The notes beneath the pieces were generated by a model. The model was not told the DNA's origin, did not search any database, and worked only from the letters and a program-made list of their open reading frames with translations. Below are positions 9,538-16,135 of a stretch of 22,538 bases of DNA, in pieces. The position numbers and the translations under genes are program-made. The DNA lies in IMG/VR virus record IMGVR_UViG_2667527827_000002; one strand, 5' to 3'. This stretch comes from a virus (taxonomy: Duplodnaviria; Heunggongvirae; Uroviricota; Caudoviricetes). The first letter of the stretch is position 1, and each line of letters opens with the position of its first letter.

Positions 9538-10347
9538 TCAATGAACGGTATCGAGCAGCTTTAACAGCTCAGGGAATCGGGATTCGAAGAAATGCGGCTG
9601 CGTCTCACGCGGATTTGCGGGACTGGTGATGTTCTTGCCGAACATGCAGCCTTTCGCCGTCAGCGACCAGAATTTTTTGATGTTGTTAATCCCGGTACGG
9701 CTGTATCGTTCGCGCTGCTCGACGATCCCCAGCTTCACCATCTGGTGATATGCCTGATTAGCCGTCAGGCGGATACCATACTGCTTCAGCAGTGCACTCA
9801 GCGACAGCGTCGGGCGGCTTGAGCCATCAGGCGCGTCAGCAGGTGCATCAATGGCATAGCGCGGTGCCAGATTCGGTAAGCCAACAGCCTCCTGGAGTTT
9901 CTGACAGGCACCAAGCACTGAAGAGTTAGACAGATTTAACTCCCGGCGCATAAAGTCCAGCAGGATCACGCCAGCCTGCATCTTGTCAGCAGCCTGTCCG
10001 GATAACTTTTCCGGCGCGCTGGTTACCATATCGAAAGTACGGATCACCTTCAGATGGAATGACGGGCTGATCCACATTGCATAGGCATACACCAGTTCCT
10101 TACAGACATACGTTCCCCGTTCATTTCCCCCATGAATCACACTCACCGGGTCAACACCCAAATTCTGGGTGTTGGTTAATTCATGAACAAGCTCAACAGT
10201 TTGTTGGCTGGAAAGAAACTTTCCTGGCTCCTTGGTTCTGGCATTTGCACCAGATGCTACTGCTGCGCGATGCAGATCGTTCAGGCTGTAACGCCCATAA
10301 GCATCACGACGAACTTCAATACCATCAATGACCATCAGATTATTCAT
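9538..10347 (-). CDS. KilA-N domain protein (antirepressor-like)
   Basis: 269 aa. ATG 10345-10347 with AGGAG about 9 nt upstream. N-terminal …MVIDGIEVRRDAYGRYSLNDLHRAA…KEPGKFL… matches the KilA-N DNA-binding domain pattern. Confidence 0.8.
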   Translation of the reverse strand: MNNLMVIDGIEVRRDAYGRYSLNDLHRAAVASGANARTKEPGKFLSSQQTVELVHELTNTQNLGVDPVSVIHGGNERGTYVCKELVYAYAMWISPSFHLKVIRTFDMVTSAPEKLSGQAADKMQAGVILLDFMRRELNLSNSSVLGACQKLQEAVGLPNLAPRYAIDAPADAPDGSSRPTLSLSALLKQYGIRLTANQAYHQMVKLGIVEQRERYSRTGINNIKKFWSLTAKGCMFGKNITSPANPRETQPHFFESRFPELLKLLDTVH

Positions 10348-10366: not shown

Positions 10367-10756
10367 TCAGGCAGCTGCACCCGCCGTTTTCTCGTACTTA
10401 CTGATAGTGATCTCGACCTTCCCTTCCGGGATAACCGGTCCCCACTCCACCAGCATTCTTTTCACCTGACTGTCGTCTTCCCACACCCCCGCGTGGGTCA
10501 GGGCGTCAAACAGCGCCTTGTTATAGTTGTCCAGATCGCGGATCCTGTTATCCGGAGGAAACAACACGATCTCCACTGAAGCAGGTGCCGACGTTGGTTT
10601 CGGCAGACGACGTAACTGCTCAACTATTGCTGCACACGCCGCGCTCTGGAATTTGCGCCCCGCCGCGCTTATCAGGCTCTTACCTGCAAACGCCACTTTG
10701 TTGGGGTGTCGCCAGTACGTGTTCACGCTGGGCGGAAAAGGCAGTATTAGCTTCAT
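10367..10756 (-). CDS. rusA: Holliday-junction resolvase RusA-like endonuclease
   Basis: 129 aa. MKLILPFPPSVNTYWRH… …DLDNYNKALFDALTHAGVWEDDSQV… are RusA-family hallmarks. The ATG overlaps the upstream stop (ATGA). Confidence 0.85.
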   Translation of the reverse strand: MKLILPFPPSVNTYWRHPNKVAFAGKSLISAAGRKFQSAACAAIVEQLRRLPKPTSAPASVEIVLFPPDNRIRDLDNYNKALFDALTHAGVWEDDSQVKRMLVEWGPVIPEGKVEITISKYEKTAGAAA

Positions 10757-11079
10757 ACTTTCAGGCCCCTCTCATGTAACCAGTGGGCTGCACGCAACCT
10801 GGCGTTCTCCTCACCGGCAAGCAGTGCGCGGATGATACCGACCGCCTCGCTGTCGTCGTCCTTCACCGCGGTATGAAGCGTGATGCCCCGGGCCACGCCA
10901 CGCTTTATCGTGATGACGCCTTTTTTCTCCAGTGCGCGAAGATGCTCCACCGCTGCATTCACTGAACGGTATCCCAGCATGGTTGCCACCTCCTGATTGG
11001 TTGGCGGGAAGCCACGTTCTTTCTGATAAGAAATCAGCATATCCAGCACCTGCTGCTGGCATTGAGTTAACGTCGTCAT
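10753..11079 (-). CDS. LexA N-terminal DNA-binding-domain-like protein (no protease domain)
   Basis: 108 aa. MTTLTQCQQQVLDMLISYQKERGFPPTNQEVATMLGYRSVNAAVEHLRALEKKGVITI… closely parallels the LexA winged-helix N-terminus (…[55 protein letters not shown]…). It lacks the S24 peptidase part. Start and stop overlap neighbours (ATGA). Confidence 0.75.
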   Translation of the reverse strand: MTTLTQCQQQVLDMLISYQKERGFPPTNQEVATMLGYRSVNAAVEHLRALEKKGVITIKRGVARGITLHTAVKDDDSEAVGIIRALLAGEENARLRAAHWLHERGLKV

Positions 11080-11729
11080 GCCGCCATCTCCCTGACCAGT
11101 TTTTCTGCCTGCTGGCGAACCTGCGCCAGAAAGGCCTCACCACATGCCTCAAGTTCATCGCGCCCGATGTAGCTGATTGCCGGTCCCTTCCAGGTCTTGT
11201 CGAAAACAGCAATAGCACCAGCGAAGAAAGCGCCTGTCGGCACCTGCTTCTCATCCTTCGGGATAAACCAGGCAGGCAGTTCAAAACCAATACGCCCGCG
11301 AATAAAAGCAATATGATCTGCATCTTCCGGCCACCACACTTCGCTGGTGGCAGCTTTGATCAGGAAAACATAGCGCCCGCCTTTATCACGCATGGCACTG
11401 GCATGCTTCATGATGTAACGCATGCCGGTGATGTATTGCCCCTCATGCTGACTGGCGCGGCTGTATGGGGGATTACCAAAGGCAGCACCTTTAAGCTCCG
11501 CAAGGCGTTCTGACCAGTCATGCGCCAGCGCGTTGTCTTCCGCCGTGTAATACGCAGCACATTTGGCGTTATCACCGTCAGTGAACAGATCCAGAACAAA
11601 CGGGCCAAACAGGGTGTTAATTCCCCAGAAAATGTTGTCCGGCGTGCGCCACTGATCGCCCACTTCCTTCAGTTCATGGGCTGGTTTGTTCCGCAGTTCC
11701 GCCAGCGCCTGGCAATATTTATTACTCAT
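11076..11729 (-). CDS. Phage Dam-type N6-adenine DNA methyltransferase (NPPY motif)
   Basis: 217 aa from ATG 11727-11729, which shares one base with the upstream TAA. Motif …AFGNPPYSRA… The track's longer version uses a GTG at 11762. Nin-region position is typical for orphan phage Dam. Confidence 0.85.
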   Translation of the reverse strand: MSNKYCQALAELRNKPAHELKEVGDQWRTPDNIFWGINTLFGPFVLDLFTDGDNAKCAAYYTAEDNALAHDWSERLAELKGAAFGNPPYSRASQHEGQYITGMRYIMKHASAMRDKGGRYVFLIKAATSEVWWPEDADHIAFIRGRIGFELPAWFIPKDEKQVPTGAFFAGAIAVFDKTWKGPAISYIGRDELEACGEAFLAQVRQQAEKLVREMAA

Positions 11730-12217
11730 TAAGCCCCCACGTAATTCCCTGAGAGATACCACTCTTCACCTGATGCAGCCCGCTTACTGCTTTTCCGTAA
11801 ACACCGTTCACGACGCGCCAGAAAATTGTTTCGTTCTGGCTGGGAGTGGCTTTCACGGAATGCCGCCATCCACACCGTTGCAGCACGACGGTATAAGCCC
11901 CTCGACTCCAGTTCTTCAGCCTGGCGGGTCAGGCACAAAATCACCCGGGGGTCGTTAGTGCCGACATAGAACTTGCGCACAGGTCTGGTTTCACGAACTG
12001 GTTGTGGTTCCGGCTCCTGCGCTCTCTCAGTCAGGCGCGAGAAATGTCTGCGTGTATCTCCTTCACAACGGTGAGCCACACGCCCACTCTGACGTAACTT
12101 GCTTGCTGACTGCAGAACGCGCTGCCGTGAGTAACCTGCAAAAGCATCCGCAATGTCTCCGGAAGTACAGCCCGGATGGGCTTCAATGAATTTCTGAACT
12201 TCATTCAAAATACTCAT
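11729..12217 (-). CDS. PerC-family-like phage protein (YfdN-like size), N-terminal wHTH-like extension
   Basis: 162 aa from ATG 12215-12217 (GGGGGTGA just upstream). C-terminal …LESRGLYRRAATVWMAAFRES…ERNNFLARRERCLRKS… resembles the PerC/Pch motif pattern as I recall it. Confidence 0.6.
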   Translation of the reverse strand: MSILNEVQKFIEAHPGCTSGDIADAFAGYSRQRVLQSASKLRQSGRVAHRCEGDTRRHFSRLTERAQEPEPQPVRETRPVRKFYVGTNDPRVILCLTRQAEELESRGLYRRAATVWMAAFRESHSQPERNNFLARRERCLRKSSKRAASGEEWYLSGNYVGA

Positions 12218-12219
12218 GC

Positions 12220-13212
12220 TCACCCCCTGAATCCTGCCGGGATCTGGCTGTAGTCCACGTTGTCGTAACTGGATTTGAAATATGGGTCTTCGCGTTTTTC
12301 TGTGTATGTGCTGACGGACGGCGATAAGCGCAGGGAAAGCTCATCCCATTTTTCCCGCAGCTTCGACGGGCTGAGCACGTTACGGCACCAGAACGGATCG
12401 CGGCTGACGCGGCTGTACATCTCGCAGATTTGTTTGTGAGTACGACCATCCTGCACACACATCAGGCGAATTTCGTTTGCCCAGGCTGTCCAGTTCGGTT
12501 CTTTGGGACGAACCACCTCGCCGTCACATTCGGCGGCCTGCTCGTACAGGGCGATGATTTTTTTCCAGAGCCACTGTGCGCAGGTCAAATCATCCTGCGT
12601 TCCCCACTGGCGCTTTTTAGGGCTGAATACAACCGCATCAGGATGGCGAGTTAAAAACTCCTGTTCAGCCGTTTGCGTGTCCGGTTGCGAAGCGTCCGGA
12701 CGAGAAGAGGTTTTATTCTCTGTAGTAATCTCTGTTGTATTCTCTGTAAGATCATTGGGCCATTTTGACCCGATGACAGCGTGTCGTTTTGAACCAATGG
12801 ATCGTGTCATTTTGCGCCCATCCATCAGGTCACTTTGACCCGATGGAGAAGTGCATTTTGACCTGATGGATTCGTTCACTTTGACCTCTTCTAAAAGCTC
12901 ACTTTCATAGTTGATCGTGTAGAAGTTGGTCATGTCACGCTTCGATTTATTGAGTTGCTCGCGACGCAAAACCCCAAGTGATTTCAGGCTTGCAAATGTG
13001 CGTTTCAGAGTGGACTCTGACCAGAACGGAAACTGCTCCAGCCACTGTTCTGTCGTGTTATAAACCCAGCGAATTCCGCCATGCTCAGTGCCTGAATTCG
13101 TTTCATTCAGCCAGTAATGAAGCTGCTGCAACACAATTGCCTCATTCAGACCAATACGGCATGCAAGATCACGATTTATCACAATGGGCTGGGATGTCAT
13201 TAACAGGCTCAT
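12220..13212 (-). CDS. Phage replication initiation protein (lambda O-like, iteron-binding), ori embedded in the gene
   Basis: 330 aa. ATG 13210-13212 overlaps the upstream stop (ATGA). Six 23-bp-spaced direct repeats lie inside the coding sequence and encode a repetitive linker (…SIGSKRHAVIGSKW…), as in lambda O. Confidence 0.75.
   Translation of the reverse strand: MSLLMTSQPIVINRDLACRIGLNEAIVLQQLHYWLNETNSGTEHGGIRWVYNTTEQWLEQFPFWSESTLKRTFASLKSLGVLRREQLNKSKRDMTNFYTINYESELLEEVKVNESIRSKCTSPSGQSDLMDGRKMTRSIGSKRHAVIGSKWPNDLTENTTEITTENKTSSRPDASQPDTQTAEQEFLTRHPDAVVFSPKKRQWGTQDDLTCAQWLWKKIIALYEQAAECDGEVVRPKEPNWTAWANEIRLMCVQDGRTHKQICEMYSRVSRDPFWCRNVLSPSKLREKWDELSLRLSPSVSTYTEKREDPYFKSSYDNVDYSQIPAGFRG
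12761..12888. repeat. Iteron array (six direct repeats, consensus about CAYTTTGACCYGATGG, 23-bp period): putative phage origin of replication
   Basis: Copies begin at about 12761, 12785, 12808, 12831, 12854 and 12877. An adjacent relatively AT-rich stretch with three tctctgt repeats (about 12700-12755) lies on the downstream side relative to the O-like gene. Confidence 0.75.
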
Positions 13213-13433
13213 GCCGCACCTCCGAGATGCTTCATGTTTTTTCCGGAGCGAAAGGCTATAAGCGGCATACTGACGCGGTAATTACGGCCCAGCGGTTCAC
13301 AAATCACCTTCTGACATTCACGGTCAACCAGGCTAACACGTAGAACATGCCCTGCAGGCGTGGTGTACCACTGACCGGGGCGAGGACAACGGAAAGTCTG
13401 ATTGGTAAATCGTTTGAAAATATTCCGGATCAT
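13209..13433 (-). CDS. Hypothetical small phage protein (74 aa)
   Basis: ORF with ATG 13431-13433 overlapping the Rha stop (ATGA), and its own stop overlapping the O-like start (ATGA). No recognisable domain; supported mainly by coupling and operon context. Confidence 0.5.
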   Translation of the reverse strand: MIRNIFKRFTNQTFRCPRPGQWYTTPAGHVLRVSLVDRECQKVICEPLGRNYRVSMPLIAFRSGKNMKHLGGAA

Positions 13434-14578
13434 TTGCGCCCCCTTACCTCTGAAGAGTTCAGCGACGAATGAATAAGACGGGCAAGAAATGCCGCATCGT
13501 TAATTCGGTCATACAGACTTACAGCCAGAGGTGATTCAGCTTTTTCCAGCATGGGATAAAGCTGCTGCAACCAGACCTGATGAATTGATGAAATGTAGGA
13601 ATAGAGAACGCTGGCGTTATGTGCAACGTCGCTCGGTACAGCGGGCTTTGAAAGCTGTTTCTCCATCTGGTTAAAGGCATTGATGTATGCCTCTTTGAAC
13701 TGGGCAGCACGTTTACCCGTGAAACCCATAGCAAGAAACGCAAAGCCGTCGCGGGTTATTTGATAGCAAGGTAGTTTGCGGCCTGTGCAATCGGTGTAAT
13801 CACTCACCGAAAAATTGCGGGCAGTGAATGATGCGGAACATTCAAGCGTGCGGATCTTTTTCAGTACATCGTCATGACGTTTGGAGAAGAAGTTGGCAAC
13901 AGCCAGGGATGAAGTAACAGCCTGACCATCAACGATGGCAATTTCAGGTTGAGTGAGGGTTGGGATCGTAGCCATGATGGCAGTCTCCGATAACAGTGAA
14001 TTACCTTCACCACCGGAAACGCCAATTTCGCTGGTGGTGAACTGAACGGGGTTGGCGTAACCGGCGTTATCGGAAACCGGCGCACCTTTCGGTGCCCCCG
14101 TCCAGCCCACCATAATTTGGGTGTGCACAGACGCAGACGATAAAAAAGACGCTGGCGCGTCATATATCGCCGATAACATTTCCAGGACGCCAATCCCGAC
14201 ACCCGCTTTATAAGGTGCCTGAACAGTGTAACGTCCCGGAATGGCAGAATCAATGTGCTGGTGGTCCTTCACACTCAACAAAATCACGCCTGAATTTCCA
14301 CAAAGGACTAAAGCACTCATGCGGGTAGTCTTTGCGAAGATAGATAACGCGCTGTGTTTCTGGCTCCCAACGAATAACATGGACATAAAGCCCTCTTCCG
14401 TCACGAAACCAGCGGTTAAGTTCCTGCACAACTCGCCCCCCACAGTCAGGTAAAGTTCTCTGTGGTTACTTACAGCCAGGTGATTTGGTAATCTGCATTC
14501 ATGCCGTAACAACAGGTGTTCAGCGACGCTGACCACCAGCTGTTGCGACAAACGGTTATTTGCCGTTAAACTGTTCAT
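13430..14578 (-). CDS. Rha-family phage regulatory protein with an unusual ~200-aa N-terminal extension (alternative: Rha alone from internal ATG 13975)
   Basis: 382-aa open frame. ATG 14576-14578 overlaps the stop of the upstream CII-position gene (ATGA). The Rha/ORF6N-like domain (…AIVDGQAVTSSLAVANFFSKRHDDVLKKIRTLE…CYQITRDGFAFLAMGFTGKRAAQFKEAYINAFNQMEKQL…) occupies residues about 205-305. An internal ATG at 13973-13975 has GGAG 9 nt upstream. Confidence 0.7.
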   Translation of the reverse strand: MNSLTANNRLSQQLVVSVAEHLLLRHECRLPNHLAVSNHRELYLTVGGELCRNLTAGFVTEEGFMSMLFVGSQKHSALSIFAKTTRMSALVLCGNSGVILLSVKDHQHIDSAIPGRYTVQAPYKAGVGIGVLEMLSAIYDAPASFLSSASVHTQIMVGWTGAPKGAPVSDNAGYANPVQFTTSEIGVSGGEGNSLLSETAIMATIPTLTQPEIAIVDGQAVTSSLAVANFFSKRHDDVLKKIRTLECSASFTARNFSVSDYTDCTGRKLPCYQITRDGFAFLAMGFTGKRAAQFKEAYINAFNQMEKQLSKPAVPSDVAHNASVLYSYISSIHQVWLQQLYPMLEKAESPLAVSLYDRINDAAFLARLIHSSLNSSEVRGRK

Positions 14579-15460: not shown

Positions 15461-16135
15461 ATGAAAACAGTCCATGACATCCGGCGGTCTAACGCCAGAA
15501 AACTGAGAGATGGTGTTGGCGGGAATTCTTCCTTTGCCACCATGATTGATCGCGAGCCAACCCAGACCAGCAGGTTTATGGGAGATGGTGCTACTAAAAA
15601 TATCGGTGACAGCATGGCACGGCACATCGAAAAATGTTTCGACCTGCCTGTCGGATGGCTTGATCAAGAACACCAGACAACAAACATCACAAAAAAACCT
15701 GATGTTTCAATTACTAACAAACAAATAACGTTAGTCCCTGTCATATCATGGGTACAGGCCGGAGCATGGAAAGAAGTTGGCTATTCTGAGGTTGATTTGA
15801 GCACAGCAGAAACTTATCCCTGCCCTGTACCCTGTGGCGAAATGACTTATATCTTGCGGGTGATTGGTGATTCAATGATTGATGAGTACCGCCCGGGAGA
15901 CATGATTTTTGTTGATCCTGAAGTCCCTGCCTGCCACGGTGACGACGTTATTGCATTGATGCACGATACAGGCGAAACCACCTTCAAGCGGTTGATAGAA
16001 GATGGAACACAGCGTTACCTCAAAGCATTAAACCCAAACTGGCCTGAACCTTACATTAAGATCAACGGTAATTGCTCTATAATTGGTACAGTGATTTTCT
16101 CAGGAAAACCAAGAAGATACAAAATAAAGGCCTAA
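15461..16135 (+). CDS. CI-like prophage repressor with C-terminal S24 (LexA-like) autopeptidase domain
   Basis: 224 aa. C-terminal domain …VIGDSMIDEYRPGDMIFVDPE…GETTFKRLIEDGTQRYLKALNPNWPEP… closely parallels lambda CI/LexA, with the Ser in GDSM, the Lys in TFKRL and a candidate Ala-Gly cleavage site (…VQAGAW…). ATG sits at the end of the operator region, consistent with a leaderless mRNA. Confidence 0.9.
   Translation: MKTVHDIRRSNARKLRDGVGGNSSFATMIDREPTQTSRFMGDGATKNIGDSMARHIEKCFDLPVGWLDQEHQTTNITKKPDVSITNKQITLVPVISWVQAGAWKEVGYSEVDLSTAETYPCPVPCGEMTYILRVIGDSMIDEYRPGDMIFVDPEVPACHGDDVIALMHDTGETTFKRLIEDGTQRYLKALNPNWPEPYIKINGNCSIIGTVIFSGKPRRYKIKA

Follow-up and report, generated by a model that had tools for sequence, protein, structure and literature searches.

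The free N-terminal fragment of LexA, LexA(1-84), binds operators specifically but weakly, and LexA(Ind-) mutants (G85D, S119A; PDB 1jhf, 1jhh) keep SOS genes repressed during DNA damage. Among phage-encoded proteins, the only characterised truncated LexA homologue found in the literature searched is gp6 of the Bacillus tectiviruses GIL01/Bam35, a protein of 66 amino acids (aa), 44% identical to the N-terminal domain of host LexA, which binds a distinct palindrome, GaCACAnnTGTGaC, at -43.5, overlapping the -35 of the late promoter P3, and activates that promoter (PMC6182141). The subject of the present analysis is a 108-aa open reading frame (ORF) in IMG/VR record IMGVR_UViG_2667527827_000002, a stretch of 22,538 nucleotides (nt) that was analysed whole (hereafter 'the window') and that Pfam matches and PGAP-annotated relatives place among SfV/e14-like lambdoid prophages. 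An earlier note had read this ORF as a LexA DNA-binding domain without its S24 autopeptidase, possibly an uncleavable LexA mimic at SOS boxes. The gene is already known as an annotation, and full-text literature searches found no study of the coliphage protein.

A LexA winged helix without its protease domain

The gene descends from the DNA-binding domain of LexA and has lost the protease. Residues 1-65 match the entire 65-position Pfam model LexA_DNA_bind (PF01726) at 69 bits and E 2.9e-19, against a cut-off of 23.7, and positions 1-91 of the 203 in the lexA equivalog model TIGR00498 are matched at 70.5 bits, below the cut-off of 110.95. Residues 1-108 align with positions 1-106 of the 106 in PHROG 362, 'transcriptional repressor' (E 1.6e-59). 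The best PDB sequence matches found by phmmer are E. coli LexA, its DNA-binding domain (1lea) scoring E 6.5e-16, and BLASTP gives 43% identity to E. coli LexA across residues 1-90. The AlphaFold2 (AF2) model, with a predicted local distance difference test score (pLDDT) of 80, consists of a winged helix (residues 1-68), a low-confidence linker (71-75, pLDDT < 50) and two helices (74-87 and 93-103); Foldseek superposes residues 1-68 on 1lea/3jso with a root-mean-square deviation of 1.0-1.2 A over 66-68 residues. Peptidase_S24 (PF00717) has no match in the ORF, nor does an S24 domain occur in any adjacent frame, and as the protein stops at residue 108, with RusA beginning at the stop codon, the loss of the S24 domain is real. 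Profile matches (PF01726 in full, TIGR00498 in part), PDB match and fold superposition thus bear out the identification of a LexA winged helix lacking the S24 autopeptidase, the profile search having placed the protein in the LexA family (PF01726) and not in another winged helix-turn-helix (wHTH) family. A replication-initiator-type winged helix was rejected, the DnaD/O-like PHROG and Pfam matches being weak (E 0.01-0.2), as was a defence or anti-defence component, for which PADLOC gave a marginal and irrelevant match.

Where LexA carries its S24 domain, the phage protein has a short tail. Homologues from at least 10 enterobacterial genera, down to 40% identical, conserve residues 74-103 (consensus EAVxLLRALxAGExxARxRAxxxLxxxG), and we infer that this hairpin most likely supplies dimerisation in place of the LexA C-terminal domain. 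Residues 83-90 (RALLAGE) align with the cleavage-site region of LexA (RVAAGE), such that Ala88-Gly89 of this allele falls opposite the Ala84-Gly85 cleavage site. Gly89, however, is replaced by N, K, D or E in relatives, so RALLAGE is a vestige rather than a cleavage site, and the idea of a substrate cleavable in trans through the retained Ala-Gly was ruled out on the same ground. Both the conserved C-terminal helical hairpin and the wide existing annotation of the gene were absent from the earlier note.

The DNA-reading surface and SOS boxes

Five residues of E. coli LexA are given as DNA contacts, via secondary citations: Ser39, Asn41, Ala42, Glu44 and Glu45 (PMC3091678, PMC13416735). The numbering of the phage protein is in register and four of the five are kept (Ser39, Asn41, Ala42, Glu45), Glu44 being replaced by Val44. 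Helix 3 reads SVNAAVEHL in the phage protein and SPNAAEEHL in LexA (7/9 identical), and 13 of the 19 residues from 36 to 54 are identical to LexA. To call the recognition region parallel to LexA 'almost residue for residue', as the earlier note does, is thus slightly overstated, the contact residue Glu44 being Val. In alignments of the family together with LexA, Ser39, Asn41, Lys53 and Arg64-Gly65-Ile66 are invariant, and position 45 is Glu or Asp in 109 of 122 short family members. The conserved helix 3 and wing indicate that DNA binding has very probably been retained.

In a computational search for LexA boxes, suggested by the earlier note, CTGT-N8-ACAG occurs four times in the window against 0.35 expected, and a single site is strong by heterology index (HI, for which lower values denote a better match). 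This box, TACTGTAAAAATAAACAGTG (6801-6820, minus strand), has an HI of 5.0, the best of 100 shuffles reaching 8.2, and falls at codons 3-9 of an N6_N4 methyltransferase gene. Methyltransferase alleles 65-100% identical have it at a constant +8 relative to the ATG, with differing box sequences (HI 1.9-5.6). It is probably a genuine host-LexA site, and its placement suggests that host LexA acts where the methyltransferase gene of the late operon begins, although no clear promoter was found adjoining it. As the box is kept where the LexA-like gene is missing, it is independent of that gene. A specific pairing of the two was accordingly rejected: the methyltransferase is present in 14 of 59 gene-bearing loci, and the box persists in gene-less ones; the co-occurrence of box and gene in 22 of 27 box-anchored loci is equalled by that of the linked RusA, KilA-N and DUF968 genes. 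A weaker SOS-like site, TGCTGGATTTTTAGACAAGA (7221-7240, HI 11.5), lies 15 bp upstream of a 75-aa ORF, between the late terminator and the methyltransferase box, and is not significant alone.

Strong boxes (HI < 9) number 43 in 1.3 Mb of related loci, and lie inside cI, before a KilA-N variant, before a divergent moron and at the methyltransferase start. At least one strong box is present in 28 of 32 gene-bearing loci anchored on Q against 12 of 35 gene-less ones, a comparison confounded by relatedness, and a box is still found in 9 of 15 close relatives without the gene.

The cI repressor coding sequence of locus L003 (7095-7114) and of ten other loci contains a perfect SOS box, TACTGTATATAAAAACAGTA (HI 2.1), in the linker between the HTH and S24 domains, and seven more have a variant, TACTGTATGTAAAAACAGTA (HI 3.2); a chance origin of a 20-bp operator-grade site inside cI is unlikely. 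An intergenic SOS box precedes a KilA-N (antirepressor-like) variant that directly follows RusA (L039, 10765-10784); the loci anchored on Q include 14 such cases, and all 14 carry the LexA-like gene. Another box (L012, 14349-14368) precedes a two-gene moron that is transcribed divergently and lies between Q and the lysis genes. The KilA-N-variant and moron boxes mark predicted LexA-controlled accessory genes in the phage lineage. In Klebsiella prophages (L287/L288), the promoter of a unit comprising a dinI-like gene, orf96, a 130-aa LexA-like homologue, orf67 and DUF968 has its -10 element overlapped by a near-consensus SOS box (3385-3404, HI 1.9). With the homologue (41% identical) behind the dinI-like gene, this unit would place a putative RecA inhibitor and a LexA-domain protein under one SOS-inducible promoter, a contextual link to the SOS circuit.

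Competing accounts of function

An SOS-box-binding, uncleavable LexA mimic is a plausible, if tentative, account of this gene. Counted in its favour are the near-identity of helix 3 to that of LexA, the four retained contacts and the invariant wing, together with the frequency of strong boxes in relatives and the Klebsiella operon that joins an SOS box to dinI. The protein would be a small accessory transcription factor in which the S24 cleavage and dimerisation domain has been swapped for a two-helix hairpin, expressed from the delayed-early pR/nin message (PerC, Dam, LexA-like, RusA, KilA-N, DUF968, Q). Its synthesis would then follow the inactivation of CI, at a stage when host LexA has likewise been destroyed through RecA*. 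It would bind SOS-box-like palindromes with CTGT-type half-sites and, as RecA* could not cleave it, repression of LexA-type operators would be re-imposed. It could act on SOS genes of the host, or on the morons and antirepressors under LexA control that are common in the phage lineage.

A bolder extension of the mimic, which we consider unlikely, is that prophages in about 41% of E. coli strains, and in many other Enterobacteriaceae, supply one to four copies of a LexA surrogate proof against RecA, which would re-silence SOS-box promoters when the prophage is induced or, weakly, during lysogeny. Its targets could include sulA, umuDC and recN in the host, LexA-controlled antirepressors and morons carried by its own or by competing prophages, and colicin operons, and the universal replacement of Glu44 would be an adaptation restoring affinity after loss of the dimerisation domain. 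Were it true, induction timing, mutagenesis and competition between prophages would all be altered. More generally, if SOS boxes are bound, a very common prophage gene would modulate the DNA-damage response of E. coli and Shigella as a natural counterpart of engineered non-cleavable LexA, with possible effects on prophage induction, toxin release, SOS mutagenesis and antibiotic tolerance; its carriers include Stx2c-converting, cdtI and Shigella serotype-converting phages.

Several observations weigh against SOS-box binding. Firstly, one LexA contact residue, Glu44, is systematically changed across the family: position 44 is never Glu in the 122 short members (V 45, A 24, T 17, N 16, F 10, L 8), in contrast to 10 of 12 full-length LexAs from the same searches that keep it. 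Position 45 differs between sub-branches (E, D, L, T, G), and the Klebsiella branch has Leu44-Leu45, so its SOS box is probably there for host LexA. Secondly, the methyltransferase box is present with or without the gene, the conserved block from PerC to DUF968 holds no SOS-like site (best HI 14.5-16), and a strong box is absent from the interval -6 to +7 kb around the gene in 26 of the 48 loci with both flanks; the HI values themselves derive from a hand-entered matrix of 29 E. coli LexA sites. Thirdly, the precedent set by gp6 is that of a truncated LexA homologue with a different specificity and an activating role (PMC6182141).

These points lead to the main rival, a phage-specific regulator of the GIL01 gp6 type with a specificity of its own, whose winged helix has drifted to a non-SOS palindrome and which leaves the host SOS regulon untouched. 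Its action, whether activating or repressing, would fall on one or a few phage promoters, such as those of an antirepressor, a late-region moron or a lysogeny gene. The family-wide replacement of Glu44 and the diversification of positions 44 and 45 by sub-branch are as expected for diverging specificities, most related loci have no strong SOS box nearby, and gp6 is as similar to its host LexA as the present protein is to that of E. coli, yet binds its own palindrome and activates P3. We regard such a regulator as possible but on balance doubtful. The analysis turned up no candidate operator. Around the gene the operon leaves no gaps, apart from SOS-type sites no notable palindrome was seen in the window's late-promoter and immunity regions, and no gp6-type binding site was identified near pR' or elsewhere. 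Q controls the late genes, so an extra activator is not required; helix 3 is far nearer to that of LexA than is the helix of gp6; and the exact presence or absence of the gene in near-identical phages means that no essential phage promoter depends on it. Should the protein act on an operator of its own, it would be a further small phage regulator whose interest is local.

An improbable third account is a decoy or adaptor acting at the protein level, whose head or tail would bind LexA, RecA, ClpXP/Lon, RNA polymerase, RusA or KilA-N. The conserved tail has no assigned function, GIL01 gp7 is a small phage protein that acts by binding LexA, and the coupling to RusA is tight, an ATGA overlap with RusA directly after the gene in 78 of 80 IMG/VR loci; KilA-N and DUF968 then follow in all 59 loci long enough to judge, and upstream lies Dam in 49 loci and PerC otherwise. 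However, conservation across the family and with LexA is highest in the recognition helix and wing (Ser39, Asn41, Lys53, Arg64-Gly65-Ile66), which indicates DNA binding, and LexA dimerises through the C-terminal domain that the phage protein lacks. RusA is also present without the gene: in loci L212 (~7782) and L231 (~2417) the Dam stop overlaps the RusA start by the same ATGA, the LexA-like ORF being exactly absent and the neighbouring genes otherwise 97-99% identical. This ORF-for-ORF absence makes the gene a dispensable, cassette-like accessory, and such natural isogenic phages with and without the ORF make an experimental comparison easy. In Cronobacter and Salmonella loci (L289-L292) the upstream slot is occupied by non-homologous DNA methyltransferases (PF05869 Dam, PF02086 D12-class or a PF00145+PF02086 fusion), with other synteny kept.

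The gene is also widespread and under constraint. Of 5426 complete E. coli genomes, 2233 (~41%) carry it, with as many as four copies in one genome, under the label 'LexA family protein/transcriptional regulator'; it is also present at 96-99% nucleotide identity in SfV (orf42, 'unknown'), SfIV, cdtI, mEp460 ('LexA DNA binding domain protein'), Stx2c-converting phages and others. Homologues bearing the tail are found in Shigella, Citrobacter, Salmonella, Cronobacter, Klebsiella, Enterobacter, Atlantibacter, Kosakonia, Raoultella and Hafnia. Among 83 DNA alleles, pairwise ratios of non-synonymous to synonymous substitution rates (dN/dS) are 0.02-0.12, denoting strong purifying selection, and pooled differences come to 704.5 synonymous against 109.5 non-synonymous, a pattern that confirms the reading frame. 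A decaying, functionless remnant of a captured lexA, to which the protein's shortness relative to LexA and its dispensability in natural phages might point, is effectively refuted by these selection data, by the conservation of length and tail across genera to 40% identity, by a good ribosome-binding site with translational coupling and by its presence in so large a share of E. coli genomes.

Locus context and known systems

The LexA-like gene is a nin-region gene of the delayed-early pR transcript. Upstream of it on the minus strand lie, in order, a cro-like gene, a CII-like gene, the Rha/Ash region, a 74-aa ORF, a replication-type gene, PerC and Dam; after it come RusA, KilA-N, DUF968, Q and a WYL-like ORF, followed by the late terminator, the 75-aa ORF and the N6_N4 methyltransferase. 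The coding strand from 10400 to 12400 contains no sigma-70-like promoter or intrinsic terminator, and with ATGA overlaps at both ends of the gene this confirms that it sits inside the early-right (nin) operon, as the earlier note had it; equally, the prophage's own cleavable repressor is a separate, S24-containing CI. Feature coordinates are collected below.

Table 1. Features of the LexA-like ORF and of its neighbourhood in the window
Feature	Position (nt)	Strand	Basis or remark
LexA-like ORF, complete, 108 aa, ATG to TGA	10753..11079	minus	Equivalent of SfV orf42 / NCBI 'LexA family protein' / PHROG 362
LexA-type wHTH, residues 1-68	10876..11079	minus	PF01726, AF2, Foldseek
Helices 6-22, 28-35, 40-52; strands 56-58, 66-68	within residues 1-68		AF2 secondary structure
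Recognition helix, residues 39-52, SVNAAVEHLRALEK	10924..10965	minus	LexA alignment, contact residues
Beta-hairpin wing, residues 56-68	10876..10914	minus	Alignments, AF2 model
Linker, residues 69-73; acidic, variable, indels among relatives	10861..10875	minus	AF2, alignments
Two-helix hairpin, residues 74-103 (helices 74-87, 93-103)	10771..10860	minus	Stands in place of S24 domain
Shine-Dalgarno AGGGAG, 8 nt upstream of ATG	11088..11093	minus	Read from sequence
ATGA overlap, Dam stop/LexA-like start	11076..11079	minus	Translational coupling
ATGA overlap, LexA-like stop/RusA start	10753..10756	minus	
Dam	11076-11762	minus	Directly upstream of LexA-like ORF
RusA	10367-10756	minus	Directly downstream of LexA-like ORF
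KilA-N	9538-10347	minus	
DUF968	8541-9536	minus	
Q antiterminator	8152-8538	minus	
75-aa ORF	6979-7206	minus	Between late terminator and methyltransferase
N6_N4 methyltransferase	5776-6828	minus	Late operon
CI, S24-type	15461-16135	plus	

Elsewhere in the window, a run of 10 N at 5715-5724 marks a scaffold/contig junction, so the host-like genes to its left, an aldo-keto reductase (1-861) and a BigA-like 1544-aa ORF (1069-5703) whose adjacency to the prophage is not assured, are uninformative about the prophage end. An apparent end of the prophage after the methyltransferase was dismissed as an artefact of this gap; in relatives the lysis genes essD and rrrD come after the methyltransferase. 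A weak WYL-like ORF (7459-8103) adjoins Q. Rfam models for C4 antisense RNA (14030-14117, minus strand, 82.8 bits) and isrK (14142-14218, minus strand, 61.5 bits) both match inside a 382-aa 'Ash + Rha' ORF (13430-14578), the 5' part of which is probably RNA-coding rather than protein-coding; the region looks like an antirepressor control module of the P1 immI or Gifsy isrK-anrP kind within the early operon. Further along are a PrtN-like pyocin-activator homologue (20981-21289) and a SocA/Panacea-domain protein (21966-22538) with an upstream 139-aa partner (region 21550-22538), which may form a toxin-antitoxin pair.

Set against known systems, SfV orf42, the mEp460 protein, PHROG 362 and NCBI WP_000210144 are the same gene in the same position between dam and rusA, and nothing differs. 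What is new here is the conserved tail hairpin, the exact presence or absence of the gene between Dam and RusA, and the family-wide loss of Glu44. E. coli LexA (1lea, 3jso) shares with the phage protein the N-terminal wHTH, four of the five contacts, Arg64-Gly65-Ile66 and the vestige of the cleavage region, whereas Ser119/Lys156 catalysis, RecA*-stimulated cleavage and the dimer interface are all three missing from the phage protein, which has instead Val44, the two-helix tail and a phage location in the nin operon. LexA(1-84) and Ind- LexA provide a functional analogy for the mimic hypothesis, but both derive from the host gene, as a product or as mutants of it, whereas the phage protein is encoded by a gene that evolved separately, carries a new C-terminal element and lacks the ClpXP-recognised C-terminus of the LexA fragment.

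GIL01 gp6 is likewise a phage-encoded LexA DNA-binding domain without a cleavage domain, in an early operon. The likeness is one of fold and domain family only: even with E allowed up to 100, BLASTP does not align the two proteins, so the two truncations arose independently. Helix 3 of gp6 (SHKTAHRYL, with Lys38 critical) is far more diverged, whereas that of the phage protein is nearly LexA's own; gp6 lacks the C-terminal hairpin; and gp6 activates the late promoter P3, whereas the late genes of the present prophage are under Q. The protein is thus best filed as an independently derived truncated phage LexA homologue, set apart by its helical tail and the loss of Glu44.

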